Assembly: GCF_018336915.1 (NCBI RefSeq)
Contig: NZ_CP064923.1
Span: 750,001 to 782,000, forward strand
Source: Acaryochloris marina S15
GTDB lineage: Bacteria; Cyanobacteriota; Cyanobacteriia; Thermosynechococcales; Thermosynechococcaceae
Reading direction: 5' to 3'
DNA: 32,000 nt
The translations under genes and the position numbers were made by a program. Numbering within the stretch: the first letter of the stretch is position 1; each line of letters opens with the position of its first letter. The notes below the pieces were generated by a model. That model had not been told where the DNA came from, made no database searches, and worked only from the letters and a program-made list of their open reading frames with translations. Positions 1-25,480 of the stretch are shown in pieces.

Positions 1-491
1 AGTGGGAAATTGCAATTCAGGGTCACTTGCTTACGAAAAAGTTGGCTACATATCTATTTGAAGAGAAAGTAGAATCTTACTTTGCTGAAAGGCGACTAAA
101 TTTTGATCGTTTTGTAATTTATCAAATTAGTGTTGACTGTCAAAAATTTGCTCAAGAATTATTTTATCAAATTGAAGAAGAAGAAATTAGTTTTTATGAA
201 GCAGCTCATCTTTATGATCTTGATGAAAGAGCTCGCTCTCTTTGCGGTTATACAGGTGAGACAAACCGCTTAAGTTTCTCTCCAGGTATTGCTGCAGCTA
301 TTTTTCAAGATCCTTTACCAATAGGAGTTTTGCTAGGGCCAATTCAAACAGAAGAAGTGCATCATCTGGTAAGGATTGAAAAATATATACCTGCAGATTT
401 AACACCCATTGTAAGGCAAGAAATTCTCGATAGCTTATTTGAAGAGTGGATTAGTAAAGAATTAAATTATATTATTAATATGCAACAATAA
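1..491 (+). CDS. PpiC/parvulin-type peptidyl-prolyl isomerase-like protein, C-terminal part (5' end lies outside the window)
   Basis: The reading frame is open from base 3 (WEIAIQGHLLTKK...), so the listed TTG at 27 is probably internal. FVIYQIS..ISFYEAAHLYDLDE..GYTGE..FSPGIAAAIF..GPIQTEEVHHLVRIE follows the parvulin pattern (HILV..A..yS.D..GG.lG.f..f..a.F..Pv.t.fG.H.i), but the first His position is substituted. Stop TAA at 489-491. Confidence 0.45.
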   Translation, partial: WEIAIQGHLLTKKLATYLFEEKVESYFAERRLNFDRFVIYQISVDCQKFAQELFYQIEEEEISFYEAAHLYDLDERARSLCGYTGETNRLSFSPGIAAAIFQDPLPIGVLLGPIQTEEVHHLVRIEKYIPADLTPIVRQEILDSLFEEWISKELNYIINMQQ

Positions 492-538
492 AAACATAAT
501 GAATCACATAATCTAAAATACTAGAGCATTAAATATTT

Positions 539-3500
539 TTATAATTCTAATTGTTGCTGAGCTAAGTAGAAATAAAGTCCTTGTTGTTGAATTAACTCTT
601 CATGAGTGCCTTTCTCAACGAGAATCCCTTTATCTAGAACAATGATACAGTCAGCGTTGCGTACTGTTGAAAGTCGATGGGCAATAATAAAAGTTGTCCG
701 TTCTCGTGCTAAACGCTTTAAATTTTCTTGAAATCTTCGTTCTGATTCAGTGTCAAGAGAGCTGGTTGCCTCATCGAAGATTAGTATAGGTGGCTTCTCA
801 AGTAAAGCTCTGGCAATTGCAATTCTTTGTCTTTGTCCCCCCGAAAGATTAGTACCCCATTCACCTACTTTGGTACTATATCCGAGAGGAAAAGCCTGAA
901 TAAAAGCATGCGCTTCTGCAAGCTTAGCAGTGTCAATAGCTTGCTCTAGACTAAATTTGGGCTGGTGGAGTGTAATATTTTCTAGGATTGTTCCCGAGAA
1001 TAAAAAACACTCTTGTGGTACTACTCCTAGTTGGGAGCGGAGCGATTTAAGTGATAAATGGTTGAGATCGTGTCCATCAATCCAAATTTGACCACTGGTC
1101 GGTTGGTATAGACCTTGAAGTAATTTGACTAAAGTACTTTTTCCTGAGCCACTACGTCCAACTATTGCCAAAGTTTGTCCTTTCTTGACTTCAAAAGAGA
1201 TGTTTTGAAGAGCATTCCTCTCTTCTTCTGATTCGTAACGAAAACTGATATTATCAAATCGAATATTTCCTTCTATGTTTGGTAGAGCTGTAGAAGATTT
1301 TTGTGATTTCTCCTCAGGTTGGTAATCAAAGATATCATTTAACTTTTCGACGGAAATTAAAACTTCTTGCAATTCATCCCATAGCCCTACAAGTGTAATG
1401 AAAGGACTAATAACATGGCCTTTCATCATGCTAAAAGCAACATATTGACCTATGGTTAGTTGATCTTGGATGACTAAAGTAGCCCCGTACCAAAGTAAAG
1501 CTGTTCCACCAATCGTATTAATTAAGCCACTGAGCACTCCTAAGTGAATGGCAAGTTTTTGGCCTTTGAATTGTATATTGAGCTGATGGGTTAATTTATC
1601 TTCCCAACGCCAGCGGAATTCTTGTTCTACAGCGACAGATTTAACTGTGGATATACCCGATAGCATTTCGACTAACGTAGAGTTCTCATCTGCTGTAGCA
1701 TTAAACTCTTCACGAGAAATCTTACGAAGTAAAGGTGTTGAAACCAAGGTGAGAACTACAATAGGAGGGATAATGGCTAATACTAAAACTGTGAGCTGCC
1801 AGTTGTAGTAAAGCATCAAACATAGATAGATAATTCCAGTCACTAAATCTAGCCAAGATAGCAATACCTGCCCGATTAGGAATTGTTGAATCTTTTCATT
1901 TTCCTGAACCCGCGTAATGATGTCGCCTACTCTGCGCGATTCAAAAAATTTAATCGGTAAATTGAGAGTATGCCTAATCAAGCCGCTAATCAATGTTAGA
2001 TCTAGTCGATTAGCAAAGTAGTTTAGTAAATATGTACGAACGGCACTTAATCCCATCCCTGCAATGCCAAACAGCAGAGCTCCAACAATCATGACATTGA
2101 GTGTCGTTTGGCTTTTGCTGACTACAATCTGATCCAGTATTATTTGGGTGAATAGAGGTGAAATAATACCAAAAATCTGAATCAAAATTGAAGCAAGAAT
2201 AATCTGTAGCCCTAAAGTGCGATAGGGCAATAGTAGATTGAAGAATCTAACTAAAGATCGCTTTTCCCCGGGGACTGTATATAGTTGCTCTGTAGGATCA
2301 AGGAGAAGCGCAAAACCTGTCCAACTCGCTACAAATTTTCGGCGTGATATCCGGTATTTGCCTTTAGCTGGATCAGCAACTAGAACCTGATCTCCTTTAA
2401 TCCAGTAAACAACAATAAAGTGATCCCCTTCCCAATGTGCAATCCAAGGATTGGTTTGATCCACTAAACGATTTAAACTTGCCCGTACGGGGCGGGCATG
2501 GTAACCAAGGGATTCTGCAGTACTAGCTAAATTCTTTAAAGAAGTACCTGATCGCCATACACCAGTTATTTCTCTCAACCAGCTAATACTAAAACGCTTG
2601 CCCCAGTACTGGCTAATCATCGCCAAACAAGCAACCCCACAGTCCGAAGAACTTTGCTGCTCGATAAACGGATAAGCTTTCCATAAAGTTCGGCGAGGTT
2701 TTAGCGGTTTAGGAAAATCAACCTGTTGTGGATTATCTACATTCTCTGCAGCGGGGAATTGCTTTGTCTGATCCTTGATTTTCCTCGGTGGGGTGGAACG
2801 AACTAGATTTCGCTTCCAGGATTTAGTTCGGTCAGTGTTGTAAATTTTTTGAGGATTAGAATTTGAGTTTGTGGTGGGTGATTGATGACTTTCTTGAACT
2901 AGCAATGTCAGTTGAGGAGCGATGGCTGTGGCAGCTTCCCAATCTTCTTGAGGAAGTTGATATATGAGTAGCTCAGTTTTGCTAAAGCTATTGATTTCAG
3001 TCGTTTCTGGATAACCCCAAGTGAAGCCAGGATGGGAGCTTTGATCTTGGATTTGACCTTGCTGTAGCCAAAAACGACCCAGTTTGGCAGGGGCTAAATT
3101 GGCAACAGCTTTACCTGGGAGTATTTTCTTCTCAACCACATATGAACAAAATTGCTCTAATTTATGGGTAGGTAGCCTATTTAAGCTTGTAAGAGTTTTA
3201 AAGAAAATTAAGCACTGTCGAGCTTGAATAGTCTCAGCTAAATGGTGTTGTAATTTTGGCAACTTCGCTAGAAAAGGGTGTAGTACTTGAAAAGGAATCT
3301 TTGCGATCTTTACTTCACTAGCAGCAAAAGCTTGGTAAGGTAAACTAGCTTCGCGATAGTTAGAGTCGCCTCCAAAAAAACTACCCTCTTGCAATAATTG
3401 AATGGATAAATTTTGATGTTGTTCAGAGTCAGTGCTTACAAGCCTAATTCTTCCTTGAATTATAATATATAGGTCTTGGTAATCATTTTTGGCTGGAGTT

Positions 3501-3754
3501 GAGGCTTCGTGGATATTATGAATAATATCTCCAAGCTGCAGTTCAATTGCTTCAAATTTTTTGCATAACTCACTGATGACAGTATTTGAGTCTGAGATGT
3601 CACATATTGTAGATAAAAAGCTAGGTAGCTTAGGTAGCTTATCTGAGGCTTGAAAATGATGATTCTTGTCTGGGATACTTAAGTTATCCATCTTGGTTTT
3701 ATTATTCAGTTTTATTTGTGCTAATGATTTTGTTTTTTGGTCATTTTGTCCCAT
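539..3754 (-). CDS. HetC-like ABC exporter: tandem cNMP-binding-like domains + C39 peptidase + ABC membrane domain + ATPase
   Basis: 1071-aa ORF. cNMP-like beta-barrel around aa 70-180 ([19 protein letters not shown]) and a second degenerate copy around aa 190-290. C39 motifs: [15 protein letters not shown] (Cys372), GDHFIVV (His445), LVADP (Asp461). Walker [10 protein letters not shown], signature [14 protein letters not shown], Walker [14 protein letters not shown]-loop IIAHRLS. The start is ambiguous: ATG 3754 overlaps the upstream gene by 34 nt, while ATG 3691 (MDNLS..) leaves a 29-nt gap. Confidence 0.9.
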
Positions 3755-4140
3755 AGAAAAAGATAGTTTTTCCCTAGCCAGTTATTGCTTTCTCCACCGG
3801 TCACTTGTGTTGATGTTTCTCGAACATCCTCTAAGTATTCAAGGTCTTGCAAGTATCTCGATGAGTTTGACTGGGATATTAGTGAACTAGGCTCAAATTC
3901 TGTACAGCTTGCTTTATCTTGAGGTATTTGATAACCCAGCATGCTTTCTTTTTTGATTAATCTGTTGTAAGTGCGATAAGGAATATAGTGTAGTGGGTTG
4001 TATCCCACAAAACGCAGCATTAAGACGCAGGCCCAGGAATATTTTCCCATTAGTATGGCTTCAATCACTTGATTGAATTGTTCATAAGTGATTTGCTTGT
4101 CAAAATCAGCGCCAGAGTGAGTTGATAAGTTATGGTTCAT
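3721..4140 (-). CDS. hetP: HetP-family protein (heterocyst-commitment protein family) with a divergent C-terminal tail
   Basis: The N-terminal block [44 protein letters not shown] matches, from memory, the conserved HetP core (..[34 protein letters not shown]..). ATG start at 4140. The C-terminal half is low-complexity/acidic and ends ..[28 protein letters not shown]. Confidence 0.75.
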
Positions 4141-4528
4141 TTTTTAAATCTCATTAGTTGATAAATCGGCTTTGTAATTGAAATTTTATGATCCTACAGA
4201 TACTTATTCCTAGAGAAGTAATTCAATTTTATGATGTATTTTTGATAGAGCATTGATTCTTTCATCTTGTTTTTCTGCTTAACCGATGGTTTTTTGAAGT
4301 GTATTTATTTTTTGTGAAAAGTAGATTTTGAGCTAATGAAAAAAGTTTTATTTTTGTGGTAGGTTGGAATGATTCGCTTTAATGGTTTTTACCTTGATTG
4401 ATAGATTGGTTGTTTGTGTTTTATAGATTAAAACGAAATGTAATCGAGATCTATTCAGTATCAAGAGATGACCGAAAAATAAGATTTATCTTGTTCGTTA
4501 TTATAGAGACTAAAAGATTTAAGCAATA

Positions 4529-6115
4529 CTAATTTTTCGTATTGCCGTTCTTTAACTGTTTTATTGGATCTAATAAAACGTCTATAACACGACGCTGACG
4601 AATAATAATATTGGCTGTTGCTGATTGGCCAGGTCTGAATTTGATTTTCTTATTGTTGTCTACGATATGATTCCGCTCTAATTCAACTTCAACTTGATAA
4701 ACATTTCCTAGGGTCTGATCAGATTTTGAGTCTGCCGAAATTGATGTTACCTTGCCTGGAATCACTCCGTAATCTTGATATGAATAGGCATCAAATTTGA
4801 CTTTTGCAGGTTGATTTTTTTTGATAAATCCTGCTTCTTTATTCGGTAATACTGCAGAAATTACTAAAGGAGTGTTGTGAGGTGCAATTTCAGCTACGGT
4901 TTGACCTGAATTTACTACCTTACCTTTATTCTTTAAATTGAAGGATAAAACAATGCCATCAATTGGTGCTTTAAGAAGTTTTTGGTCTAGGGTAGCTTTG
5001 GCTTTGAGTATTAGATTTTTTGTTTCAGATACTCTAGTTTTATTCTGAGTAGTTTCTAGTTTGAGCTGATCAATTTTTTGGTATGCTTCTAGCTTTAATC
5101 GCGTTCTTTCTGCTTTATTCCGATTTAAATCTGCTTGTAGTTGCTCAACCCGTTGATAAGCCGAATATATCTCTCCTTGATCTTGTGTCATTTTTGCCGC
5201 GAGCGTTCGCATCGATTGCTCATTTTGAAAGATCTGCTGGCTGACACTAGTAATGTCTTGTAATTTACTTTCTGTTATCTGATTCTGAACTTGACTAAGG
5301 TTTTGATTTGCTTGGAAGACCAATTCACTAGAGATGGCACCTTGCTTTTCCAAAGATTTTAACTTCTTCACGCGACCTTGATTTGATTTGAGATCTAGCT
5401 CTAGTTGCTTAACTCGAGATTTTGATAAGTTTGACAAGAGCTTTAAGCGTTTATGCCTGGCATTGTACGCATTGAGTTCTTGCTTTTGCTGTATTAGTAA
5501 CTGAAGCAAAGTTTCTGCCTTGTCTTCAGCTGATTTAATAGCAGACTCTTGACCTAAATTCTCTGATGTAGCAATTCGTTGATGAGTTTGAGCTTCTAAG
5601 TAGACTTTGTTGAGAAGAGATTGTTTTTGCTTCAGTTCTTGTTGGTAGTCAGATAGCATTTGTTCCAATCGTCTGACTTCTTTTTTATCTATAGAAGTAT
5701 CTAGTTCAGCGATTATCTGTCCAGCGGTAACTATTTCTCCTTCTTTAACCGCAATTCGACTGACTTTACCTATTGCAATAGACTCAACCTTATATGTCTC
5801 ACCTTTCGGAACTAGCTTCCCTTTTGCTGTACCTATATCTTCTATTTTTCCCAGCCAAGCCCATCCGAGAAAAGCCAGCAAAAATACCATGCCGCCCACA
5901 ATGATTCGAAGAGGCATCTCTGCTGGAGGCTGGTCTAGTAGTGATTGTAGAGATGAAGACCAATCGATGATGTCATTGTTTTTGTATTCAAAATTGTGGA
6001 TATTAGGCTGATTTAAGCTTGAGCTTTGATCGATTTTGTTACCTAATTCTTGATCAGAAATAGTCAAACCTTTGCCCCCAAAACCTTTTTTATGAAAAAA
6101 TTGCTCTGCTGCCAA
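4529..6115 (-). CDS. HlyD-family membrane fusion (periplasmic adaptor) protein
   Basis: Single TM LRIIVGGMVFLLAFLGWAWLG, lipoyl-like hairpin GKVSRIAVKEGEIVTAGQIIAELD, a coiled-coil of roughly 230 aa rich in Q/K/E/L, and a C-terminal barrel APIDGIVLSFNLKNKGKVVNSGQTVAEIAP. The listed start is TTG (6115); there is no in-frame ATG until Met67, so the start is uncertain. Confidence 0.85.
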   Translation of the reverse strand: MAAEQFFHKKGFGGKGLTISDQELGNKIDQSSSLNQPNIHNFEYKNNDIIDWSSSLQSLLDQPPAEMPLRIIVGGMVFLLAFLGWAWLGKIEDIGTAKGKLVPKGETYKVESIAIGKVSRIAVKEGEIVTAGQIIAELDTSIDKKEVRRLEQMLSDYQQELKQKQSLLNKVYLEAQTHQRIATSENLGQESAIKSAEDKAETLLQLLIQQKQELNAYNARHKRLKLLSNLSKSRVKQLELDLKSNQGRVKKLKSLEKQGAISSELVFQANQNLSQVQNQITESKLQDITSVSQQIFQNEQSMRTLAAKMTQDQGEIYSAYQRVEQLQADLNRNKAERTRLKLEAYQKIDQLKLETTQNKTRVSETKNLILKAKATLDQKLLKAPIDGIVLSFNLKNKGKVVNSGQTVAEIAPHNTPLVISAVLPNKEAGFIKKNQPAKVKFDAYSYQDYGVIPGKVTSISADSKSDQTLGNVYQVEVELERNHIVDNNKKIKFRPGQSATANIIIRQRRVIDVLLDPIKQLKNGNTKN

Positions 6116-6260
6116 GCAGATATTTCATCAAAATGTACTTATTTTAGTCTGAAAATGATTTAAATCTATGAAAAATTTAACAGTTTCTTTTGATCTTTGT
6201 TGTTGGACATTTGTTCATAGAATAGCACTCAAAAAAATTTTAAAAACTGTAATTTAAGTA

Positions 6261-6295
6261 GAGTAAGTTAGAAGATTGCTGCTTCTAACTTACTC
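6261..6295. other. Perfect inverted repeat (14-bp stem, 7-nt loop): possible terminator/attenuator hairpin
   Basis: GAGTAAGTTAGAAG (6261-6274), attgctg, CTTCTAACTTACTC (6282-6295) are exact reverse complements. It lies 146-180 bp upstream of the hlyD-like start and 3 nt downstream of a 29-codon plus-strand ORF. T-rich sequence follows on both strands, though not immediately. Confidence 0.5.
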
Positions 6296-6724
6296 CTTAA
6301 GTGTTTGTTTAAAGACACATCGTGACTAAAGAAAAAAACCTTTATAGACTTTATTTTTTTATCACTAGTGTTTGAGAAATTGTTATCCGCTTTAGGATAT
6401 AAATTGTTAGACAGCACTATCTGACAATCCTATATTTTTCCGTATAAGTCTCAGAAAATCTATAAGCACTGCCACGTTTAATGTTGAGGCTGATATCTCT
6501 ATATTAGTTAGAGTTAATGCATGCTCTAGTACTCTCTAGATAATTTGTATGGATAATATCCTCTAAATGCTTAAATCTCATTCAAAAAATGCGAATGACT
6601 TATACCCAGTTTTTACAGGCATAGAATCTAGTTTTAGTTATTTATCAAGAGCTTTGATAACTCTTAGCCTCTTTATCACTATTTGAGTGAAAAGCTAAAA
6701 ATTTGATTGTTTGAGTTTTGACTT

Positions 6725-6769
6725 GGGGAAGATTTTTTGGGGAGCAGTTGATTAGGGGGAATCTGTGGG
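6725..6769 (+). repeat. Cluster of four G-runs (GGGG, GGGG, GGGGG, GGG) within very AT-rich DNA
   Basis: G-runs at 6725-6728, 6739-6742, 6755-6759 and 6767-6769, separated by 10, 12 and 7 nt. The first three are each preceded by a T-rich stretch (ttgacttGGGGA / attttttGGGGA / ttgattaGGGGGA). Confidence 0.4.
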
Positions 6770-7817
6770 CTTAAGAATATTCGAACTTAGAAAATTCTTG
6801 GTTCATGTATCAAGTAGACTAAAAAATTATTTCTAATCTGTCTGTTGTGAGCCCATAGATGAATCATATCTAGCTAGGATTGATATTTTTTTTGCTTTAC
6901 CAAACACATTTTGAATTTACCTTTTGTTTGAGTAATTGAATAGTTTCTCTTTACAAAAGTTATCTAGGTAATTTTATGTTTTATTGATGTCGTATATGTC
7001 TTTATTACTTTAAATGACTATAGATTATTATTCCTTTTTCAGTGCATATTAAAAGTTTTTATTACTTTCGTACTGCAAAATAGAGATTTTGTAAAATAAA
7101 ATTAATTATGTACAGTAACTTATTCTATCTTAAGTGCTTAGATCCTATAGATAGCAAGAACTTTAGAGGAATTAAAAGATTTTATACTAGTTATATATTG
7201 GAGGTTAGAGTCATTATCTAAAAATGATTTTATATATGAGGTAAGTTCTGATCTGAATCTGATGCTTCTTTAGACAGAGTGTGAAAATGTAATGCTTAAG
7301 GTAATTACAAGAATAATGTGATATGAGATGATTCGATTGATCAGATTAGGTTGATCGTTGATTTTTGAGTGAAACTATAATTTGAAAGAGAAATAAATCT
7401 CAATGGTAAATTTTGTTGATACTATCTAGCTCATGCTTGGTTTCTTTGTTGGTGATGGATGAGTTGTGTACTTCATGAAGTCGATAGGGAGATACTGTTG
7501 ACGGCTGATTAATCATTGCTATCTAAATATCTAAAATTTTATGAAGCCTATTTCAATAAGGCTTCTATATAAAATATAAATCTTTAATCTTGGCAATGTT
7601 TAATGCTTGAATTTAAGAGAAAAATAGCTTGAATTTGATTTATATATAGTCTTGTTTATGGGTTTATTGAGTCTTGCTTTTTATTTTTTTGTGATACTTA
7701 AAGGTCAATTAGAAACTAAGAATAGACTTTGTAGGTATCTATAAAGTCCGAGTTATTTCATTGATTAAAAATAATAATATTCTTGGCTTGAGAAAACTTT
7801 ATTGGAAAACTATGTGA

Positions 7818-8600
7818 TCACTGCTCTGTTTGTATTTTAGGATTTAATACCTGTTCTATAAAATGAGTAATGATTGATATGAAATTGTTCCGATTTTCCC
7901 AAGGTACACGATGTCCAGAATTGAGAATTATGCGATGAGTGATTGATGGACAATGATGAGCTAGCTTTTGCCCGATTTGGCAATATTTCTCGTCTTCTAC
8001 TCCTGATATATACAAAACAGGAATGTTTAAATTTTGTAAGTTAGAGAGAAGATTGAATTGATGTCCTTTGGAGAAATTCTGAAATGCTTTTGAGATTTTG
8101 AGCCGAGAATAGTCTTTTTCTAAGGCTGAATAGGAGGGCTGGCGTCCACAGAATACGGGTAGCGAATTCCACTCCTGTATTAGGTTGTCCCAATTATCAT
8201 GCAGCAATTGGATGCTCCATACGTTATCTTTTTTGAGACAGTTTCTGCGATCGCACTCCGATGTCAACCCCGAATCGGCACTAATAATGATGGCTCCTTG
8301 CCATAATTCAGGTTGGTGTAGCAGGGCATGAAACGCTAAACGTCCCCCCAGGGAATATCCCAGCAAAATACGAGACTTAAAGGCATGGGGGTGAACACGT
8401 TGACAAAATAATGCGGCCCATTCCTTTAAAGACTCTCCGGGACTGGCCCATAGATCTTCTAAGAAAATGGATAGGTTGAGTTCTGGGCTAACTGCTTGAT
8501 GCAGTTGTGTTGTGATTGGTTGCCATACTTTAGGGGTTTGGAGATTGCCATGAATCATCCATAACCCAACTTCAGACGGCACAATAGATTTTGGTGACAT
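7818..8600 (-). CDS. menH: Alpha/beta-hydrolase, MenH-like (SHCHC synthase-like)
   Basis: 260 aa. Nucleophile elbow GYSLGGR, acid residue in SGVEDEKY, His in NSGHRVPWEN. The overall motif order is collinear with E. coli MenH as I remember it (GYSLGGR..W..PVF..G..D.K..GH..H.E.P). ATG at 8600. Confidence 0.55.
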   Translation of the reverse strand: MSPKSIVPSEVGLWMIHGNLQTPKVWQPITTQLHQAVSPELNLSIFLEDLWASPGESLKEWAALFCQRVHPHAFKSRILLGYSLGGRLAFHALLHQPELWQGAIIISADSGLTSECDRRNCLKKDNVWSIQLLHDNWDNLIQEWNSLPVFCGRQPSYSALEKDYSRLKISKAFQNFSKGHQFNLLSNLQNLNIPVLYISGVEDEKYCQIGQKLAHHCPSITHRIILNSGHRVPWENRNNFISIITHFIEQVLNPKIQTEQ

Positions 8601-8689
8601 GATGCTCAGTATATGATTTCCCTAAGCCAAAAGAGGGGGCTGTTTCCTAACACGGGATATGGCTGGCTCTGCTAAAGATGTTCGATTAA

Positions 8690-10972
8690 ATGTCTACACT
8701 GCACCTGTTTGGAATTCGCCATCATGGACCGGGCTCAGCCCGGAGTTTGCGACAGAGCTTAGAAAGCCTAGAGCCTGATTTGATTTTGGTGGAGGGGCCA
8801 CCGGATGCTGCGGGCGTAATTGACCAGATAGTGAGTCCAGACATGAGTCCGCCTGTCGCGATTTTGATCTATTCACCGGAGCAACCTCAGCAAGCCGTTT
8901 ATTACCCTTTTGCGGTCTTTTCACCCGAATGGCAGGCGTTAGACTATGGCCTACAACAGCAGGTCCCGGTGCAGTGGATGGACTTACCCCAGACCCACCA
9001 GCTTGCTTTGCGACAGCAGCTTGATCAACAGTTTGAACCCCCCGAAGCAGATAGTGATGCTGAGAATTTATCACCTGAGTCTGCTCTACCGGAGATTCGG
9101 CATGATCCGCTCTTTTGGTTAGCCCAAGCTGCTGGATTCAATGATAGTGAACGCTGGTGGGAGCGAATGGTGGAACAGCGATCTGAAACCACCGATTTGT
9201 TCCCCGCCATTGTGGAAGCGATGACAGCCCTGCGATTAGAGATGGAAAAAGACCATCCGCCGGATCTCAATAACAATCGGGATTACCGAGAAGCCTTGCG
9301 AGAAGCCTATATGCGGCAAACGATCCGCAAAGCTAAAAAAGCAGGGCATGAAAAAATTGCGATTATTTGTGGGGCTTGGCATACGCCTGCTTTGGCAGAA
9401 CCTTTCCCACCGGCTAAGCAGGATACGGCTTTACTGAAAGGCTTACCTAAACTGAAGGTGACCTCCACCTGGATTCCCTGGACCTATGAACGGCTGGCAG
9501 ATCGCAGTGGCTATGGCGCTGGGATTGCTGCTCCCGGCTGGTATCACCATTTATGGACTGCATCGGATCAACCCACGATTTATTGGTTGACCCATGTGGC
9601 TCGACTGTTGCGTCAGGCCGATGTGGATGCCTCCTCGGCTAGCGTGATTGAGGCGGTGCGGTTGGCCAATTCTTTAGCGGCGCTGCGAGATTGCCCCACA
9701 CCTGGTTTGCCGGAACTGAATGAAGCGGCCCAGACGGTCCTCTGCTTTGGAGATGACCTGCCGTTGCGGCTTATTCATGAACGATTGATTATCAGCGATC
9801 GCATGGGGCAAGTCCCGGACGATACGCCGATGGTGCCCTTACAGGTGGATTTGCAGCGTTGGCAGAAAAAGCTGCGCCTCAAACCTCAGGTGACGTCCAA
9901 GGAATTGGCTCTGGATTTGCGAAAGCCGAATGATTTGTTGCGATCGCAACTTTTGCATCGTCTCAATTTACTGGGAATTCCTTGGGGCCGCCCTACCTTT
10001 AGTCGCGGTAAAGGCACCTTCAAAGAAGCGTGGATGCTAGAGTGGCAGCCTGAGTTTGAGATTGCCTTAATTGAAGCAGGTCAATGGGGAAATACGATTG
10101 AAGTTGCAACGACAGCCTATGCCTGTGATGTGGCTGAAAAGGCTCCCAATTTACCGAAATTGACTGAGCTGTTAGACCAAGTGCTATTGGCGGCTCTTCC
10201 CGAAGCGATTGCCCAACTGATGCTCTGCTTGCAGGCTGAAGCTGCAGTCGCCAGCGATGTGGTGCATCTGATGTCGGCCTTACCGTCTTTGGCCCAAATC
10301 CTGCGGTATCGCGATGTCCGCCAAACGGATACGGATGTTGTGGCCCATGTGGTGGATGGCTTAGTCACTCGCATCTGTATTGGTTTACCGGGGGCTTGTG
10401 CGTCCCTGGATGATGACGCGGCAGCCATGATGGATCAGCAAATTATGCAAACCCACAGCGCGATTAATTTGCTGCAAAATCAGGACCACCAGCAGATGTG
10501 GTGGATGGTGGTACAACAACTGGCCCATCGAGAGAGTTTGCATGGATTGCTGGGCGGTCGCTGTTGTCGGTTACTGCTGGATGGGGGACAGTTCGAACCT
10601 GCAAGAGCGGCCCAACGGTTGGGGTTAGCGTTATCCTTGGCGACGGAACCGACTCAAGCAGCAGCCTGGATTGAAGGCTTTCTCAAGGGCAGTGGCCTGT
10701 TGTTACTCCACAATCAGGAGATTTGGCAGGTGCTGGATCAGTGGGTTTGTGAATTGGCACCGGATACTTTTGTAACGCTGTTACCGTTGCTGCGGCGGAC
10801 GTTCTCGACGTTTCCGGCAGCAGAACGGCGACAAATGGGAGAACGAGTGACGCAAGGAAGTGTGGGGACTGGATTGCAGGGTTGGGAATCGGAGGTATTG
10901 GATTGCGATCGCGCTGAAAAAGTCTTACCTCTGGTGGCCCAACTCCTCGGACTGTCTGCACCCAATTTATAA
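8690..10972 (+). CDS. DUF5682-family protein (large conserved protein of unknown function)
   Basis: 760-aa ORF with ordinary codon texture and four HIP1 sites. The N-terminus LHLFGIRHHGPGSARSLRQSLESLEPDLILVEGPPDA matches my memory of the DUF5682 family signature (..GIRHHGPGSAR..PD.VL.EGP.). No catalytic motif recognised. Confidence 0.6.
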   Translation: MSTLHLFGIRHHGPGSARSLRQSLESLEPDLILVEGPPDAAGVIDQIVSPDMSPPVAILIYSPEQPQQAVYYPFAVFSPEWQALDYGLQQQVPVQWMDLPQTHQLALRQQLDQQFEPPEADSDAENLSPESALPEIRHDPLFWLAQAAGFNDSERWWERMVEQRSETTDLFPAIVEAMTALRLEMEKDHPPDLNNNRDYREALREAYMRQTIRKAKKAGHEKIAIICGAWHTPALAEPFPPAKQDTALLKGLPKLKVTSTWIPWTYERLADRSGYGAGIAAPGWYHHLWTASDQPTIYWLTHVARLLRQADVDASSASVIEAVRLANSLAALRDCPTPGLPELNEAAQTVLCFGDDLPLRLIHERLIISDRMGQVPDDTPMVPLQVDLQRWQKKLRLKPQVTSKELALDLRKPNDLLRSQLLHRLNLLGIPWGRPTFSRGKGTFKEAWMLEWQPEFEIALIEAGQWGNTIEVATTAYACDVAEKAPNLPKLTELLDQVLLAALPEAIAQLMLCLQAEAAVASDVVHLMSALPSLAQILRYRDVRQTDTDVVAHVVDGLVTRICIGLPGACASLDDDAAAMMDQQIMQTHSAINLLQNQDHQQMWWMVVQQLAHRESLHGLLGGRCCRLLLDGGQFEPARAAQRLGLALSLATEPTQAAAWIEGFLKGSGLLLLHNQEIWQVLDQWVCELAPDTFVTLLPLLRRTFSTFPAAERRQMGERVTQGSVGTGLQGWESEVLDCDRAEKVLPLVAQLLGLSAPNL

Positions 10973-13239: not shown

Positions 13240-13313
13240 CGCAGCACTAGAGCTTGCTTTTTTGTCCTTGCTTGAGCGATTATCTGCTATTGCCTGCCCT
13301 AAAACTCAAACCC

Positions 13314-14150
13314 ATGACTGACTCCTCACTGCGCCTGCTGTCTGCTTTTACAACTGATCCAAAAGGGGGGAACCCTGCCGGAGTGTGGATTGGCGATACC
13401 CTGCCAACCCCGGAAACCATGCAGCGAATCGCGGCTGAAGTGGGCTTTTCTGAGACAGCCTTTGTGGTGCCAAAAACTGGATTTGCGCGAACGGTCCGTT
13501 ACTACAGTCCAGAAGTAGAAGTACCCTTTTGTGGACATGCCACCGTTGCAACTGGAGTGGTCCTTGGTGAATTGAGTGGTGAGGGAACGTATCAATTAGC
13601 AACGACCGTAGGAGAAGTCCCTGTGGCTGTCAGTGTCCAAGAGGGGCAATGGCAAGCTTCTTTGACATCTGTAGAACCCACCCATACCCTAGCCTCGGAT
13701 GCATTAGTGGCTGACATCTTGTCTGCTTTGGGTTGGCAATTGGATGAGCTGGATCTATCTATCCCACCGGCTCGGGCTTATGCTGGGGCATGGCATTTGG
13801 TATTGGCCGTTTCCCAAGCAGAGCGGCTGGCTCATTTAGACTACGATTTTGACCGGCTCAAAGTACTGATGCAGCAGGATGGCCTGTTAACGCTACAGTT
13901 AATCTGGCGAGAGAGCCCTCGCATTTTTCATTCCCGTAATCCCTTCCCCGTTGGCGGTGTGGTGGAAGACCCGGCAACGGGGGCAGCGGCGGCAGCTTTA
14001 GGAGGGTATCTGCGGGATGCCCAGTTAATCTCTGTCCCCCATCAGTTTGTGATTCGCCAAGGAGAAGCGATGGGGCGACCTAGTCGGCTGGTGGTGGATA
14101 TTCCTGCTAGCGGTGGAATTGAGGTGAGCGGGATGGCAGTACGCCTCTAA
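13314..14150 (+). CDS. PhzF-family isomerase-like protein
   Basis: Motifs GGNPAGVW, FSETAF, PFCGHATVA and EDPATGAAAAALGGYL are typical of the PhzF/YddE family. ATG at 13314 is more likely than the listed TTG at 13254. The stop TAA at 14148-14150 lies inside the IS target-site duplication. Confidence 0.8.
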   Translation: MTDSSLRLLSAFTTDPKGGNPAGVWIGDTLPTPETMQRIAAEVGFSETAFVVPKTGFARTVRYYSPEVEVPFCGHATVATGVVLGELSGEGTYQLATTVGEVPVAVSVQEGQWQASLTSVEPTHTLASDALVADILSALGWQLDELDLSIPPARAYAGAWHLVLAVSQAERLAHLDYDFDRLKVLMQQDGLLTLQLIWRESPRIFHSRNPFPVGGVVEDPATGAAAAALGGYLRDAQLISVPHQFVIRQGEAMGRPSRLVVDIPASGGIEVSGMAVRL

Positions 14151-14153: not shown

Positions 14154-15659
14154 CTGACTTTTCCTGCTAAGTCTTCCAGTGCTTAGTGGGTGGTATTTGT
14201 AGCCCTTAGTCTCAGCCTTGGTTAAAGTAAGTGCAGTGATACCCAGGGAGCATCTAATGAGTCCAGAGCGTTATGAGCAAAATTTTGGAACCTGTGAGTT
14301 GGGTGATCAACGATTGAATCACCGTGCATTCAGTATCGGTCGTTCTCTGAGCGAGAAATTTGGTCAAGCCCTATGACCGTATTTGAGACTGGGAAAGCCC
14401 TCAAACGGTCTTACGAGTTTTCGCAAATGTGAAAACCAGCTTCGCTAAGATTATTTCTCCTCATTGTTCTATGACCGCTTGTAGCGTATCGTCGCAAGAG
14501 ATGACCTTGAGTGTTGGCGACACCACCTTCCTCGACTATGAAGGTATCAAGCAGAAGCGCCAAGGCTATGGTCCCCAAGGCAGAGGGGGGAATGGATTAT
14601 TACTCCATAGTGCCTTAGCCGTTGACCCTGAGCAGGGCCAACCCTTGGGTTTGTTATGGCAAAAAGTGTGGAATCGTCAGCATCGCCCCAAGCCCCCGAA
14701 GAATGAAACGTCCCGACAAAAGAAGAAACGTCAGACCAAAGCGCGTAAAACTGCTCGGGAGCGTCTATTTGAGGAAAAAGAATCCTATCGTTGGGTGGAA
14801 GCACTGCACGCAGTGGAGAAAGCTGTGGGTCCTTCAACTCGTATCATTCATGTCTTTGACCGAGAAGGAGACATTGCTGAAGTCTTTGAACGACTCAATA
14901 CCCTAGACAATACGGGACTCGTGGTTAGAGCCTCTCATAATCGTTGTCTAGAACACGATCCTAATCGCCTGTGGGAAAAGCTGGAAGCCCAGAGTGTTCA
15001 GTTCGAGTATGAGATTGACTTACCTAAAACGAAAGGCCGGAGTGCGCGCACGGCTAAGTTAGCTGTGAGATGTTGTCTTGTTGAACTTCAAAGACCAGCC
15101 CGACTAGCTGCCAGTCAACCCCTTCAGATTTACGCTGTCTATGCAACAGAAGTAGCCCCACCTGAAGGGGAAGAACCAGTGTCATGGATGTTGCTCACTA
15201 GTGAAGTCGTGACAACAGTAGAAATGGCCCAAACCATTTTGCGTTGGTACACCTACCGTTGGCGAGTTGAGGAGTATCACAAAGTTCTAAAATCGGGCAC
15301 TCAGGTGGAGCGATATCGGTTGGCATCTGAGGGAATGAAAACCTTATTGGGATTCCTGTGTGTCACTGCTGTAGAGCTGTTGCGTGTGACTTATTTAGAA
15401 CGAACACAACCTCAATTACCTGCACAAGATGTCCTCACGCCTTTACAGATCAAAGTTCTCATTGCCAAGACCCCGAAGGTACCTAAAACATTAACGGTGG
15501 CATGGGCTGTTCAAGCAGTTGCACGACTCGGGGGATATCTGGAGCATCGTCGAAACACACCGATTGGAATTCAAGTCCTGTGGAAAGGGTGGGCGAAGCT
15601 CAATGACCTGATTGAAGGCTGGCTGTTAGCTACCCAGGAGACTTAGCAGGAAAAGTCAG
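14154..15659 (+). mobile_element. IS4-family (IS50/Tn5-like) insertion sequence, 1506 bp
   Basis: Perfect 21-bp terminal inverted repeats CTGACTTTTCCTGCTAAGTCT (14154-14174) and AGACTTAGCAGGAAAAGTCAG (15639-15659). Perfect 9-bp direct repeat CTCTAAGTT at 14145-14153 and 15660-15668. The IR start CTGACT..TT......AAGT resembles the Tn5 outside end CTGACTCTTATACACAAGT. The internal ORF has Tn5-like DDE motifs. Confidence 0.92.
14257..15646 (+). pseudogene. Tn5-like DDE transposase, with the N-terminal DNA-binding region interrupted by two -1 frame changes
   Basis: Frame 1 from ATG 14257 gives MSPERYEQNFGTCELGDQRLNHRAFSIGRSLSEKFGQAL* (compare Tn5 ..LGDPRRTARLV..). Frame 3 (14373-14432) gives MTVFETGKALKRSYEFSQM*. 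Frame 2 from about 14420 gives FANVKTSFAKIISPH... and runs to 15646. The catalytic core is intact: GDTTFLDY (D), HVFDREGDI (D), YTYRWRVEEYHKVLKSG (E, YREK signature). Confidence 0.85.
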
Positions 15660-15751: not shown

Positions 15752-16669
15752 TTATAAAGCTTGGATAGCCTGAGCTACCTGTTCTCGCAACCATTGATGT
15801 TGAGAACTATGGGTATGACGCTGATGCCAAACCATCGAGACCGTAAATCCTGTGATATCCATCGGAGGTGGCAACAATTTTAACCCCATGGCCTTGGCAC
15901 ATTGTTCCGCCATTCGTTTTGGCAATAGCGCCACACAATCTGTTCGAGCCAGCAAAAACGGCACTGACATAAAATGGGGCGTAGACCAAATCACCGACCG
16001 GGCCTGCTGTTGTTCTGCCAAGCGGCGATCCACAATTCCCAGAAAATCATCCCGAAGCGAGACCAGAATGTGAGATCTGGCGACATAATCAGTCAATGAC
16101 ATCTCCGTCAGCGGATTTTCACTACGCACTACACACACAAATTCTTCTTCGTAGAGCGCTTGTTGGTCATGCCAAGGCTTGCGATCTAATTCAGCACCGA
16201 TAAACAGATCTATCCTATTGGCATCCAATGCCGCTAATACCTCATCTTTCTTGGTGCTGCATATCCTAATCTGCACTTGGGGGGCATCAACCATTAGCTT
16301 AGAGAGCACTTGTCCACCGATGGTTGCTTCTACATAGTCATTCGTCGCCATGCGAAAATCTACCTTCGTCGTGGCTGGATCAAAGGTTTCTTTCACTAGC
16401 AGGGTTGCTTGAATATCGGTCAATACCTGCCGCACTTGCCCACTGATTTCACGGGCATAGGGAGTCACTTCCATTTGGCGTTGCGAAACCCGAATCAAGA
16501 TCGGATCGTTCAAGACCTTGCGGAGCCGTTTTAGGGCATGGCTCATGGCCGATTGACTCATATGTAGCCGCTCAGCTGCCTGAGTCACACTCGCTTCAGC
16601 GATCAGAATATCTAAAACCAGCAGTAGATTCAGATCTAGTTGGCGCAGATTGGCATAGTCAAGGGTCAT
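15752..16669 (-). CDS. LysR-family transcriptional regulator
   Basis: N-terminal HTH LDLNLLLVLDILIAEASVTQAAERLHMSQSAMSHALKRLR followed by a roughly 200-aa substrate-binding domain. Divergent from the oxidoreductase gene. Confidence 0.9.
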   Translation of the reverse strand: MTLDYANLRQLDLNLLLVLDILIAEASVTQAAERLHMSQSAMSHALKRLRKVLNDPILIRVSQRQMEVTPYAREISGQVRQVLTDIQATLLVKETFDPATTKVDFRMATNDYVEATIGGQVLSKLMVDAPQVQIRICSTKKDEVLAALDANRIDLFIGAELDRKPWHDQQALYEEEFVCVVRSENPLTEMSLTDYVARSHILVSLRDDFLGIVDRRLAEQQQARSVIWSTPHFMSVPFLLARTDCVALLPKRMAEQCAKAMGLKLLPPPMDITGFTVSMVWHQRHTHSSQHQWLREQVAQAIQAL

Positions 16670-16799: not shown

Positions 16800-17816
16800 A
16801 TGACTCGTGTTGTTCGTATTCATGAATTTGGGGGTCCTGAAGGTCTCAAAATTGACAACCTTGCGTTACCTGCACCAGGTTCTGGCGAAGTCCGTATTGC
16901 AATACGGGCGATTGGTCTCAATCGTGCCGATGGCCTCCTCCGCCAAAATCAATATATTGAAACGCCGGAGCTGCCATCCAAGTTGGGCTATGACGTTGCC
17001 GGTACGGTGGAGGCAGTAGGACCTGATGTGGATAACGTTGTGGTGGGCGATCGCATTCTCACCATCCCAACCTTTTCCCAGGCCGACTATGGGGTCTATG
17101 GTGAAGCCGCAATTGTCCCCGCCAATGCCCTCTGGCCCTGGCCCGATACTCTTTCCGCAGAGCAGGCCGCTTGCGTTGGTGTCCAGTACACTACCGTCTA
17201 CTTTGCCCTGCAAAGGGTCGGTCATTTACAGGTCGGTGATACCGTTTTACTCACTGCAGCTACGGGCGGTGTTGGTTTTGCCGCTATTGCTGTAGCCAAA
17301 CAAATGGGGGCGACGGTCATCGCTACCACCCGCAAGCGGGCCAAAGCCGATGCCCTTCACCAAGCTGGAGCAGATCATGTGGTGGTCACTAGTGAAGAAG
17401 ACCTGGCAGAGCGGGTTCAGGTGATTACTGATGGACAGGGAGTCAAGGTGATTTTTGATGCGATCGCAGGCCGTACCATTCCCACCCTCCTCGACTGCCT
17501 AGCCATGGGAGGCTGCTGTATTTTGTATGGTCTCCTGGATTCAACGGAACCCACCTTACCCGTGATGCCATTTCTGTTAAAAAACATCAGTCTGCATGGG
17601 TATACCGTGTTCGCCTATACGGGGTATCCCAATTTTGGTCTTCCTCAACAAACAGAAGCGGTCGTAGCAGCCCGTGAATTTCTCCTTCCCCGTCTAGCAG
17701 ATGGCCGTTTGCAGCCGATGGTCAGTGAAACCTTCCCATTTGAAGAAGTCATTGCTGCCCACCATGCTTTAGAGTCCAACCAGCAAACTGGCAAAATTGT
17801 GTTGAAAGTTCATTAG
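16800..17816 (+). CDS. Zinc-independent MDR-family NADPH:quinone oxidoreductase (zeta-crystallin-like)
   Basis: 338 aa. GroES-like N-terminus (GEVRIAIRAIGLNRAD), cofactor motif AATGGVGFAAIAVAK, C-terminus ..QTGKIVLKV typical of Qor-like enzymes. Confidence 0.85.
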   Translation: MTRVVRIHEFGGPEGLKIDNLALPAPGSGEVRIAIRAIGLNRADGLLRQNQYIETPELPSKLGYDVAGTVEAVGPDVDNVVVGDRILTIPTFSQADYGVYGEAAIVPANALWPWPDTLSAEQAACVGVQYTTVYFALQRVGHLQVGDTVLLTAATGGVGFAAIAVAKQMGATVIATTRKRAKADALHQAGADHVVVTSEEDLAERVQVITDGQGVKVIFDAIAGRTIPTLLDCLAMGGCCILYGLLDSTEPTLPVMPFLLKNISLHGYTVFAYTGYPNFGLPQQTEAVVAAREFLLPRLADGRLQPMVSETFPFEEVIAAHHALESNQQTGKIVLKVH

Positions 17817-24684: not shown

Positions 24685-24707
24685 CAGCTATGAGTCCAGA
24701 GTGATGA

Positions 24708-25436: not shown

Positions 25437-25480
25437 GCGGCCTCCTCTCAGATCTTCAGAAAAGTCCTCAGATGCTCAGG

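Follow-up and report, generated by a model that had tools for sequence, protein, structure and literature searches.

The closest described systems are the cyanobacterial group I clusters of Wang, Fewer & Sivonen (2011), which combine a long-type (CAP_ED) C39 transporter with HlyD and SurA, and which are often adjoined by HetP-like proteins with a putative GG cleavage motif (PMC3140520). AM1_4010 of Acaryochloris marina MBIC11017 (hereafter A. marina) was entered there as a group I 'HetP' precursor, and an M16 peptidase was suggested as the possible relevant protease in group II clusters; the main text does not connect the HetP motif with the N-terminal leaders of small co-clustered peptides (PMC3140520). 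Micallef et al. (2015) repeated the proposal for Subsection V genomes (PMC4558948), and both studies are in silico only. In Anabaena PCC 7120, hetC (alr2817), encoding a cNMP-C39-ABC exporter, lies directly upstream of the same-strand hetP (alr2818), as an earlier note on the present DNA had stated (PMC4133259). The HetC domain homologous to the cNMP domain of the exporter described here binds ppGpp in vitro (PMC10986499). HetC cannot function without its peptidase and ATPase residues; the heterocyst frequency of a hetC peptidase-domain mutant is restored by an extra hetP-gfp copy, and both HetP-GFP and HetC-GFP are concentrated near the heterocyst poles. The earlier note saw no mechanistic link between HetC and HetP, which is true experimentally, although the in silico precursor proposal exists (PMC3140520); its statement that cargo and role outside heterocyst development are undescribed does not hold, since HetP has been proposed as a precursor (PMC3140520, PMC4558948).

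Layout of the module and its exporter

The window, the whole 32-kb stretch of DNA analysed here, carries open reading frames at 539-3754(-), 3721-4140(-), 4529-6115(-) and 27-491(+), as noted earlier. Family matches confirm that these comprise an HlyD-type membrane-fusion (periplasmic adaptor) gene, a HetP-family gene and a cNMP-C39-ABC exporter gene (PCAT, 'long type') on the minus strand, with a parvulin-like gene on the plus strand converging on the exporter gene, and one conserved module of the four genes is supported. The A. marina cluster around AM1_4010 likewise has the long-type CAP_ED C39 transporter, HlyD, a SurA/rotamase protein and a HetP with KIxDLxYLEx10GG; the window comes from a different Acaryochloris-like genome and shows no difference in kind. 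The syntenic A. marina region has 79-85% nucleotide identity to window positions 3-10938. The compositionally distinct island of the earlier note is real as regards low GC (29-42% over 1-8000 versus 45-54% in most of the remaining window), but the low-GC stretch is also present in syntenic A. marina and therefore says little about recent transfer.

Convergence of the parvulin/SurA-like gene stands, although ORF 27-491 is incomplete: the window's left edge cuts the gene, whose C-terminal ~163 codons (3-491, plus strand) are in a frame open from position 3. This frame matches the A. marina ortholog and gives weak matches to PPIC rotamase (Pfam) and TIGR04500. Orthologs of 245-263 aa carry SurA_N_3 and Rotamase and have no obvious signal peptide, so the protein is probably cytoplasmic. 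A parvulin-like homolog occurs in most surveyed HetP loci, and in many Nostocales loci it lies 1-2 kb downstream of hetP.

The HlyD gene (4529-6115, minus strand; up to 528 aa, with an uncertain TTG start) matches TIGR01843 type_I_hlyD with 226.7 bits (cutoff 208.65) as well as HlyD_3, and its product and the A. marina ortholog share 90% identity; this full-length HlyD contrasts with PCC 7120, where no membrane-fusion gene is reported near hetC. An AT-rich spacer of 388 nt without a conserved ORF (4141-4528, minus strand) parts HlyD from HetP, compared with roughly 30-100 nt in other taxa, a separation that counts against HetP as a substrate. Over 4250-4499, a gapped alignment of the spacer with A. 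marina reaches only 61% identity; a promoter driving HetP and the exporter may lie in this spacer. Upstream of the module lies a 1.7-kb ORF-poor stretch (6116-7817; ~29-30% GC), which in gapped alignment is 65-80% identical to A. marina and is presumably regulatory or decayed; it yielded no ORF of at least 60 aa, no Rfam match and no small conserved ORF bearing a GG leader.

The exporter ORF (539-3754, minus strand; 1071 aa) matches cNMP_binding, Peptidase_C39, ABC_membrane and ABC_tran in Pfam. Its spacing from HetP is as the earlier note gave it: the HetP stop codon (3721-3723) lies 29 nt from the second exporter ATG (M22, at 3691), and the genes overlap if translation starts at ATG 3754. 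Because the A. marina ortholog can start only at the position equivalent to M22, the real exporter probably has 1050 aa (539-3691). Along the 1071-aa ORF, a cNMP-binding (CAP_ED) domain (residues 93-163; 3266-3478, minus strand; PF00027, 30.1 bits, cutoff 27.5) is followed by the C39 peptidase domain (residues 361-489; 2288-2674, minus strand; PF03412, 132.5 bits), a 6-TM ABC transmembrane domain (residues 518-783) and a nucleotide-binding domain (residues 849-998; both domains within 761-2203, minus strand) in which Walker A, Q-loop, LSGGQ signature, Walker B and H-loop are all present.

PCATs are established to couple cleavage after Gly-Gly with export. The exporter aligns with PCAT1 (4RY2) over residues 354-1067, and also with HlyB; Gln366, Cys372, His445 (GDHF) and Asp461 (VADP) stand opposite the Gln, Cys, His and Asp of the PCAT1 peptidase domain, of which we take Cys, His and Asp to be the catalytic residues, and the C39 peptidase is thus predicted to be active. 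The C39 domain, the 6-TM ABC core and the HlyD-family adaptor are shared with PCAT1, ComA (8HF4), LahT150 (6MPZ) and HlyB-HlyD, whereas an N-terminal region of ~350 residues with the cNMP domain is additional. The label 'HetC-like' holds for architecture and context, but the exporter tree does not settle orthology to Nostocales HetC, with whose N-domains those of the window exporter are only 29-39% identical.

The HetP-family protein and its leader-like block

The HetP-family gene (3721-4140, minus strand; 139 aa), the proposed substrate, matches NCBIfam NF037966 HetP_family with 117 bits (cutoff 45). Its product shares 81-83% identity with Acaryochloris HetP-family proteins; for the A. marina ortholog, identified by coordinates as AM1_4010, the value is 81%. 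The conserved N-terminal domain (residues 8-64; 3949-4119, minus strand), defined by the HMM match and an invariant block in the HetP alignment, largely coincides with three helices predicted by AlphaFold2 at residues 19-68 (pLDDT 70-90). After a poorly conserved linker, disordered in the predicted structure, the alignment has a second conserved block, D-L-x-Y-L-E-x10-G-[G/S/A], which is the motif published for HetP proteins as KIxDLxYLEx10GG (PMC3140520). Alignment, motif and leader HMM place it in the window at residues 99-116 (3793-3846, minus strand) as an internal double-glycine leader-like block with a predicted cut after G116. The 23-residue tail downstream of G115-G116 (3724-3792, minus strand) is the predicted exported peptide, with a helix predicted at 119-137. 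G115 is invariant among the 28 aligned sequences, and the dipeptide is G-[GSA] in 75 of 80 loci (GG 67, GS 6, GA 2); the GG motif is also present in alr2818. The tail is moderately conserved (WL motif), with Trp 3-7 residues after the GG in 60/70 tails of at least 8 aa.

In related clusters, 28 small ORFs (67-119 aa) open with the same block as HetP, for example MIISDLNYLESVEEEIFGG and MLIADLNYLESVAEETIVGG. An HMM built from small-peptide leaders alone, with HetP sequences left out, was searched against 4035 ORFs and recovered, beyond the small peptides, nearly only HetP proteins, every time at the leader-like block; window HetP matched at residues 99-116 with E=1.3e-3 and a modest 16 bits. 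A six-frame scan of the window (926 segments) gave the HetP block as the sole significant match (E=3e-4), and no small ORF with a GG leader was found besides it in the window and its intergenic regions. Judged by these profile matches, the HetP motif is homologous to the leaders of the cluster's own small peptides.

Canonical double-glycine leaders carry hydrophobic residues at -4, -7, -12 and -15, and the HetP leader, with hydrophobics at -4, -11, -14, -15 and -17, is atypical against these positions. It also reads DLxYLE...GG rather than LSxxELxxIxGG as for solved PCATs, and this putative leader is internal, behind a folded domain, unlike those of solved-PCAT substrates. The atypical spacing, the modest HMM score, the unusual length of a 116-residue 'leader' with a folded domain and a tail unlike hypervariable bacteriocin cores all weigh against HetP as a substrate. 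A comparable build is known from NHLP and Nif11-derived N11P precursors, which combine a conserved protein-like N-terminal region, a GG site and a short C-terminal core and are likewise encoded beside C39 transporters in cyanobacteria. The HetP N-domain shows no sequence relationship to them and acts as a regulator in its own right in Anabaena, a predicted disordered linker parts domain from leader, and HetP-type precursors are basic rather than acidic like NHLP and N11P (PMC3140520).

Linkage and decay across genomes

The earlier note called for a neighbourhood survey of HetP and exporter genes. Such a survey, covering 80 HetP loci from other genomes, mostly Nostocales, with a four-query annotation and a 10-kb flank, placed a C39-ABC gene no more than 10 kb from HetP in 70/80; one further locus has a C39 tblastn match without an intact ORF call, and all four additional loci with precomputed Pfam annotation also have an exporter within 10 kb. 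The adjacency is not due to chance. It spans Acaryochloris, Pleurocapsales, Leptolyngbyaceae and Nostocales in three gene orders (HlyD-HetP-PCAT; PCAT-HlyD-HetP; PCAT-(short or no HlyD)-HetP), HetP being upstream of the exporter in the window and downstream in Nostocales, a switch that the earlier note had already seen. As it had argued, adjacency retained through such rearrangement points to a functional unit. To our knowledge, Acaryochloris forms no heterocysts, and in 10/10 loci that we judged to be non-heterocystous a cNMP-type exporter directly flanks HetP. Counted from the exporter side, HetP occurs in a minority of long-type clusters (1/57 group I, 10/23 group II), which speaks against HetP as a substrate.

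The motif or the subsequent tail has decayed in most HetP genes without a flanking exporter: a degenerate GG or tail is seen in 1/60 genes flanked by a co-oriented exporter versus 11/16 not so flanked (Fisher p=8.5e-9, without correction for phylogeny, which limits its weight for HetP as a substrate; at least about 7 lineages by reading of the tails).

Proposed processing of HetP and alternative readings

With a probability of roughly 0.55, we consider the locus to be a 'group I' double-glycine peptide processing and export cluster sensu Wang et al. 2011 with the HetP-family protein as substrate, and we give the same weight to cleavage of HetP by the C39 domain after G115-G116 with export of the 23-residue tail. 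Gene content, unbroken catalytic and ATPase motifs, conservation of the motif and of the linkage, and leader homology are observed here, whereas cleavage, export and any signalling role are inferred. Joined to the HetP domain through a disordered linker, the C-terminal part of HetP would by itself form a complete precursor, made up of a 21-residue leader and a 23-residue core. We propose the following hypothetical steps: (i) the DLxYLE leader is bound by the C39 domain, which then cuts after G115-G116; (ii) the tail is pumped out via the exporter and HlyD, with an outer-membrane partner encoded elsewhere; (iii) the 116-residue HetP fragment is retained in the cell. The exported peptide could be either a signal or an antimicrobial.

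It is possible, if doubtful, that the true cargo consists of one or more small leader peptides outside the window, with HetP a passenger of the cluster and no more than a minor or competing substrate. Related clusters contain arrays of 1-6 such peptides, many coexisting with HetP, and in A. marina a canonical one lies 3.1 kb beyond the parvulin-like gene (L001, 17508-17768, minus strand), encoding MMIISDLNYCEAVTEGLDKVAGG followed by SFSKK...; by synteny its equivalent would lie ~3.4 kb outside the left edge of the window, so the main cargo could sit outside the window. No such ORF lies within the window or its intergenic regions, however, and this reading leaves HetP's complete leader, GG and tail unexplained, as well as their decay without a flanking exporter; it is also compatible with HetP as a substrate rather than exclusive of it.

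A HetP-like protein that is neither cut nor exported and acts as exporter partner or regulator is rather unlikely. It would dock on the C39 or cNMP domain via the leader-like block, modulating export of other peptides or sensing exporter activity, which would suit a small, helical N-domain with regulatory roles in Anabaena, a tail that is conserved rather than hypervariable, the canonical small leader peptides beside HetP in many clusters and near that of A. marina, and the cytoplasmic, polar position of HetP-GFP. Yet in HetP the G-[GSA] dipeptide with its invariant Gly falls exactly on the cleavage-site position of the small peptides, and the C39 catalytic residues are intact; since a C-terminal GFP would be expected to jam export, HetP-GFP localisation is no argument against cleavage.

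Inherited synteny or co-regulation without a physical or biochemical link, the C-terminal motif serving an unrelated function, is very improbable and already disfavoured: most of the 80 loci are Nostocales and could share the arrangement by descent, but linkage is kept in three gene orders across distant orders, and the motif, a homolog of the leaders encoded in the cluster itself, decays in the absence of a flanking exporter. Cleavage at the motif by another, M16-type protease is the least credible reading, for although Wang et al. saw a connection between the motif and the group II M16 domain (PMC3140520), a suggestion that tells against HetP as a substrate, no M16 or other peptidase gene was found in the 32-kb window, which leaves C39 as the only candidate protease there, or, within the four-query annotation, in HlyD-HetP-PCAT-parvulin loci, and the G-[GSA] site resembles the leaders of C39 peptidase substrates.

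In summary, this cluster type was catalogued, and HetP proposed as its cargo, already in 2011 and 2015. Beyond the published work, our analysis adds that the HetP motif matches the leaders of the small peptides, that the window holds no second leader of this kind, and that most HetP genes without a flanking exporter show decay of the motif or of the tail, as would be consistent with HetP serving as a substrate of the C39 exporter.

Gene content and cluster type

The exporter ORF on the minus strand (539-3754 in the ORF list, 1071 aa) carries a cNMP_binding domain at residues 93-163, with a Pfam score just above the cutoff, together with Peptidase_C39 (residues 361-489; PF03412, 132.5 bits), ABC_membrane (PF00664, 166 bits) and ABC_tran (PF00005, 135 bits), the last with Walker A/B, signature and H-loop intact. 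Residues 354-1067 align with PCAT1, a bacteriocin transporter of known structure, and with HlyB (structures 4RY2 and 7SGR), and in the peptidase-domain alignment Gln366, Cys372, His445 and Asp461 lie opposite the Gln, Cys, His and Asp of PCAT1. We take Gln366 to be the oxyanion residue and Cys372, His445 and Asp461 to be the catalytic residues. Judged by its sequence, the protein combines a C39 domain bearing Cys/His/Asp/Gln with a transmembrane and a nucleotide-binding domain, as a peptidase-containing ABC transporter (PCAT) does. All ORFs of the module lie where the earlier note had placed them, except that the exporter probably begins at M22 (ATG 3691), 29 nt past the HetP stop codon, since the ORF of A. 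marina MBIC11017 can start only at the equivalent position, and that the parvulin-like gene is incomplete. The latter was detected by a weak parvulin/rotamase match at 27-491 on the plus strand; its frame is open from position 3 and, over 3-491, continues the sequence of the A. marina MBIC11017 ortholog (249 aa), to the middle of which it corresponds, so the gene is cut by the left edge of the window. Full-length orthologs (245-263 aa) contain SurA_N_3 and Rotamase domains and no obvious signal peptide, and the protein is therefore probably cytoplasmic rather than a periplasmic SurA. The adaptor gene (4529-6115, minus strand, 528 aa) scores 226.7 bits against TIGR01843 (cutoff 208.65) and matches HlyD_3 (77 bits) and Biotin_lipoyl_2, which identifies it as a type I secretion adaptor. 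An OEP/TolC domain is absent from the window ORFs scanned, two of which have no Pfam match at all; genes for TolC-like outer-membrane factors are often unlinked to their exporters.

Positions 3-10938 are collinear with A. marina MBIC11017 at 79-85% nucleotide identity. Positions 1-8000 have a GC content of 29-42%, whereas most of the remaining window has 45-54%, and the A. marina MBIC11017 region shows the same dip; the low GC of the compositionally distinct island described earlier is thus real, but it is a shared and hence older feature. A promoter and terminator scan of 1-8000 found fewer promoter-like sites than in shuffled sequences and no terminator between the genes, and an Rfam scan of 1-9000 at E ≤ 1 returned no match. 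The 1.7 kb upstream of the HlyD gene (6116-7817), unusually long for a bacterial intergenic region, contain no ORF of 60 aa or more at about 29-30% GC, and align with A. marina MBIC11017 at 65-80% identity with gaps, peaking at 80% around 6750-6999. Beyond this stretch, a MenH-like alpha/beta hydrolase gene (7818-8600, minus strand; TIGR03695 below cutoff) diverges from the gene for a 760-aa DUF5682 protein (8690-10972, plus strand; E = 4.5e-294), and the GC content climbs from about 36% to above 50% across their boundary. Further downstream, an ORF with a weak DDE_Tnp_1 transposase match (14429-15646, plus strand) is flanked by a PhzF-like gene (13254-14150) and the gene for a LysR regulator (15752-16669), and an LPS-transport set of LptF/G permease, ABC ATPase and LptA-like ORF (23530-25891, minus strand) is followed by genes for DUF309 and the ferredoxin-thioredoxin reductase beta chain.

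Cyanobacterial 'bacteriocin' clusters have been classified by Wang, Fewer & Sivonen (2011; PMC3140520), with groups I, II and VI comprising a long-type C39 transporter (with N-terminal CAP_ED domain), HlyD and SurA; HetP-like proteins often adjoin such clusters. The window holds a long-type C39 transporter, HlyD and SurA/rotamase, while M16, LanM and S8 domains were found in none of the window ORFs scanned; the cluster, having every group I feature tested, belongs to that group. The same authors reported a putative cleavage motif, KIxDLxYLEx10GG, in HetP and proposed HetP as a precursor; the rows of their Table S3 considered here include, among the 'HetP' precursors of group I, AM1_4010 (139 aa, CP000828 4058552-4058971), which by its coordinates is the ortholog of the window HetP gene. 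Later, a group I cluster with one precursor of the HetP type was described for every Subsection V genome (Micallef et al. 2015; PMC4558948). The earlier view that the cargo and role of such a module outside heterocysts are undescribed is therefore wrong at the in silico level, since both studies already propose a HetP precursor. Cluster type, HetP-exporter association, GG motif and ortholog are all in the literature and thus already known; the GG motif in HetP, considered as a new observation, was discarded as such because it had been published in PMC3140520.

Leader-like block and tail of HetP

The HetP-family gene (3721-4140, minus strand) encodes 139 aa, of which residues 8-64 match NF037966 with 117 bits (cutoff 45); its database homologs bear PF28069 (HetP), and its closest relatives are Acaryochloris proteins (81-83% identity). 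An alignment of 28 HetP proteins revealed an N-terminal domain, a variable linker and then the block D99-L-x-Y-L-E-x10-G115-G/S with an invariant G115; over 80 HetP loci from other genomes, the two aligned positions read GG in 67, GS in 6 and GA in 2. In canonical double-glycine leaders (LSxxELxxIxGG), positions -4, -7, -12 and -15 are hydrophobic and position -2 is Gly. The window HetP departs from this pattern, with V-4, S-7, D-12 and Y-15, plus V-11, L-14 and L-17, so that only -4, -15 and the GG conform to the consensus. AlphaFold2 predicts a confident three-helix N-domain (residues 19-68) and a tail helix (119-137); the linker between them, with the motif in it, is predicted to be disordered. 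A Foldseek comparison of this model with the PDB gave no match at E ≤ 0.001, and a fold-based function for the HetP domain was consequently not obtained. The tail is conserved, not hypervariable: a Trp stands 3-7 residues past the GG, usually as W-L, in 60 of the 70 HetP tails of at least 8 aa, and many Nostocales tails in the 80-locus alignment end in FCEFN or a near variant. Most Nostocales HetP proteins have a tail of 36 residues, against 23 in the window protein. Conservation of this kind is more in line with a specific receptor or partner than with a bacteriocin that diversifies.

The same block opens small ORFs of related clusters, for example MIISDLNYLESVEEEIFGG, MLIADLNYLESVAEETIVGG (followed by RRRRRR) and MNISDLTYLEIVSEENLSGG. 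A profile built solely from 28 small-peptide N-terminal leaders of the form 'MIISDLNYLE...GG' ending in G-[GSA] was run against 4035 ORFs (all loci plus the window); besides small peptides, it matched almost exclusively HetP proteins, and always in the C-terminal block. It recovered residues 99-116 of the window HetP (E = 1.3e-3 among the 4035 ORFs), which was also the sole significant match among 926 six-frame segments of the window (E = 3e-4). Because a profile of small-peptide leaders finds the C-terminal block of HetP, the protein resembles a HetP domain to which an entire precursor, leader plus core, of the kind found in the cluster itself has been joined. The small leader peptides matched no family in NCBIfam. 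A conserved small ORF or GG-leader peptide was found in neither 4141-4528 nor 6116-7817, and a search between hetP and the parvulin-like gene of seven Nostocales loci gave no convincing leader peptide like patC (asr2819).

Linkage, gene order and relation to HetC

The 80 loci surveyed are the best of roughly 585 or more HetP-family loci, drawn from species-representative genomes with 10-kb flanks and annotated by search with the window's proteins; the family also has short paralogs such as asl1930, alr3234 and alr2902. A C39-ABC gene lies within 10 kb of HetP in 70 of them; one more has a C39 tblastn match only, and several of the remainder are short contigs. As a rough estimate, a random gene would have such an exporter within 10 kb in only a few per cent of cases, because genomes have been reported to contain between a few and 14 of these clusters (PMC3140520). 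Four further loci with independent, precomputed Pfam annotation come from Pleurocapsa PCC 7319, an NCBI assembly and two metagenome contigs in ENA; in all of them cNMP-C39-ABC, a membrane-fusion protein, HetP, small ORFs and a rotamase follow one another in this order. The order HlyD-HetP-PCAT with convergent parvulin, as in the window, recurs in A. marina MBIC11017, two Xenococcaceae MAGs and one unclassified cyanobacterium; Leptolyngbyaceae, Kastovskya and others have PCAT-HlyD-HetP-...-parvulin; and Nostocales have hetC-(short or no HlyD)-hetP-parvulin, often with another PCAT-HlyD-parvulin set behind it. The neighbourhood survey suggested in the earlier note thus bears out the co-occurrence of HetP with the exporter, and linkage in 70/80 and 4/4 loci across three gene orders supports its proposal of a functional unit kept through rearrangement.

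Between hetC and hetP, Fischerella, Stigonema, Scytonema and Chlorogloeopsis have intact HlyD-like ORFs of about 290-330 aa (8996-9928 in locus L003, 9053-9937 in L036, 8857-9858 in L004, and in about 12 other Nostocales loci), whose similarity to HlyD is confined to its N-terminal part (about 31-205), its C-terminal part (about 340-525) or both. Of three ORFs tested, two passed the Pfam HlyD_3 cutoff and the one from Scytonema had no Pfam match; these short ORFs look like shortened adaptors without the coiled-coil hairpin. Nostoc/Anabaena loci have no HlyD-like ORF at this place, in agreement with the published statement that PCC 7120 has no membrane-fusion gene in the vicinity of hetC. In many Nostocales, a second, cNMP-poor C39-ABC gene with a full HlyD gene and a second parvulin-like gene lies 3-9 kb downstream of hetP (14189-19765 in L004; also L007, L008, L009, L013, L033, L034, L037, L042, L049 and others), and often precedes small 'MIISDL...GG' precursor genes. 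Just past this second cluster, Anabaena/Trichormus loci carry one more HetP-like ORF, which is short (about 118-130 aa) and on the minus strand (L047, 18905-19261; L060, 18887-19240; L062, 19242-19637). In one locus (L052), HlyD is followed by a tandem duplication of the HetP gene (9136-9543 and 9950-10393).

The window exporter shares the cNMP-C39-ABC architecture described for HetC (PMC10986499), at about 1000-1070 aa, although its N-domain is only 29-39% identical to HetC N-domains. A neighbour-joining tree of 88 PCATs contains three clades: Nostocales HetC (45), non-heterocystous HetP-adjacent exporters including that of the window (14), and the second Nostocales PCAT (29). Midpoint rooting joins the window clade to the second Nostocales PCAT in this tree without outgroup, whose root is ambiguous; we therefore do not claim orthology to HetC and call the exporter HetC-like in its predicted architecture and its context.

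Loss of G-[GSA] or a tail of 8 aa or less was seen in 1 of 60 HetP genes that have a co-oriented exporter as direct neighbour, against 11 of 16 that do not (Fisher p = 8.5e-9, phylogeny ignored), and by our reading of the tail sequences such losses span at least about seven lineages. The degenerate HetP proteins without a flanking hetC-type exporter end in a 7-aa tail (HREKxxA), have lost the GG, or are truncated before or at the motif. Degenerate loci come from Anabaena, Trichormus, Sphaerospermopsis and relatives (L047, L060, L062, L067, L020, L051), with further cases in L011, L029, L064 and L068; in L029 (Nodularia), just an N-domain fragment of hetC lies upstream of the degenerate hetP.

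Proposed processing of HetP and its alternatives

For HetC itself, a 2024 study showed peptidase activity and essential catalytic residues, but termed the substrate unknown; it states that a GG-leader gene is absent from the vicinity of hetC and only raises the question whether HetP-derived peptides are exported (PMC10986499). Gene content, motifs, linkage and leader homology of the present module were observed directly, and in the best-supported reading, to which we give a probability of about 0.55, we infer cleavage, export and function as follows: (i) the C39 domain would bind the HetP-like protein at the DLxYLE leader and cut it after G115-G116; (ii) the 23-residue tail would leave via the ABC core and HlyD, with an outer-membrane factor encoded outside the window; (iii) the HetP fragment would stay in the cytoplasm. 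The cluster would in this way work like PCAT/type I-like double-glycine export systems. [quoted passage not shown] Some features weigh against this reading: the leader departs in its spacing from usual double-glycine leaders, it would have to span 116 residues, and most long-type clusters have no HetP.

It is somewhat doubtful, and compatible with HetP being a substrate, that small peptides are the main cargo. A. marina MBIC11017 encodes an 86-aa ORF (MMIISDLNYCEAVTEGLDKVAGG, followed by SFSKKVHLKF) at 17508-17768 on the minus strand of its locus (L001), with the leader of the small precursors of related clusters. Given this canonical small leader peptide, whose position falls outside the window, the exporter may have other or additional cargo. 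The ORF is located 3.1 kb beyond the parvulin-like gene, which corresponds to a point about 3.4 kb to the left of the window, and the window's cluster may extend beyond the left edge. It matched nothing in Pfam and is not among the AM1 rows of Table S3 of PMC3140520 considered here, from a file with six AM1 entries. An unlikely alternative is that HetP acts as a docking regulator of the exporter and not as its substrate. Mere synteny, set against the linkage retained across three gene orders, is very improbable. Cleavage of HetP by another protease is the least probable, as neither an M16 nor any further peptidase was found in the window ORFs scanned and the alternative protease of Wang et al. 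is thus not locally available.

Acaryochloris is unicellular and is not known to form heterocysts. Tentatively, and at somewhat less than even odds, we propose that HetP-family proteins are bifunctional exporter substrates, that the substrate of HetC is HetP, and that hetC-hetP is a decayed remnant of an older PCAT-HlyD-HetP-SurA module. A regulatory HetP domain would then be fused to a leader and core of the small-peptide type, and one PCAT cut would yield both an intracellular HetP fragment and an exported, conserved WL-containing peptide. HetP itself would be what HetC acts on in heterocyst commitment, a substrate long sought, while the intact module would persist in unicellular cyanobacteria such as A. 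marina S15. The remnant would be seen in a series running from a full HlyD outside Nostocales through a short HlyD of about 300 aa in Stigonematales/Scytonema to none in Nostoc. The window locus shows the system in a simple form: it has exporter, full adaptor and SurA-like protein, and HetP is the sole leader-bearing gene in view. Together with the leader homology and the correlated decay, it makes the question of the HetC substrate directly testable, and an answer on cleavage and export could settle both the link between HetC and HetP and the role of the HetP family outside heterocyst formers.
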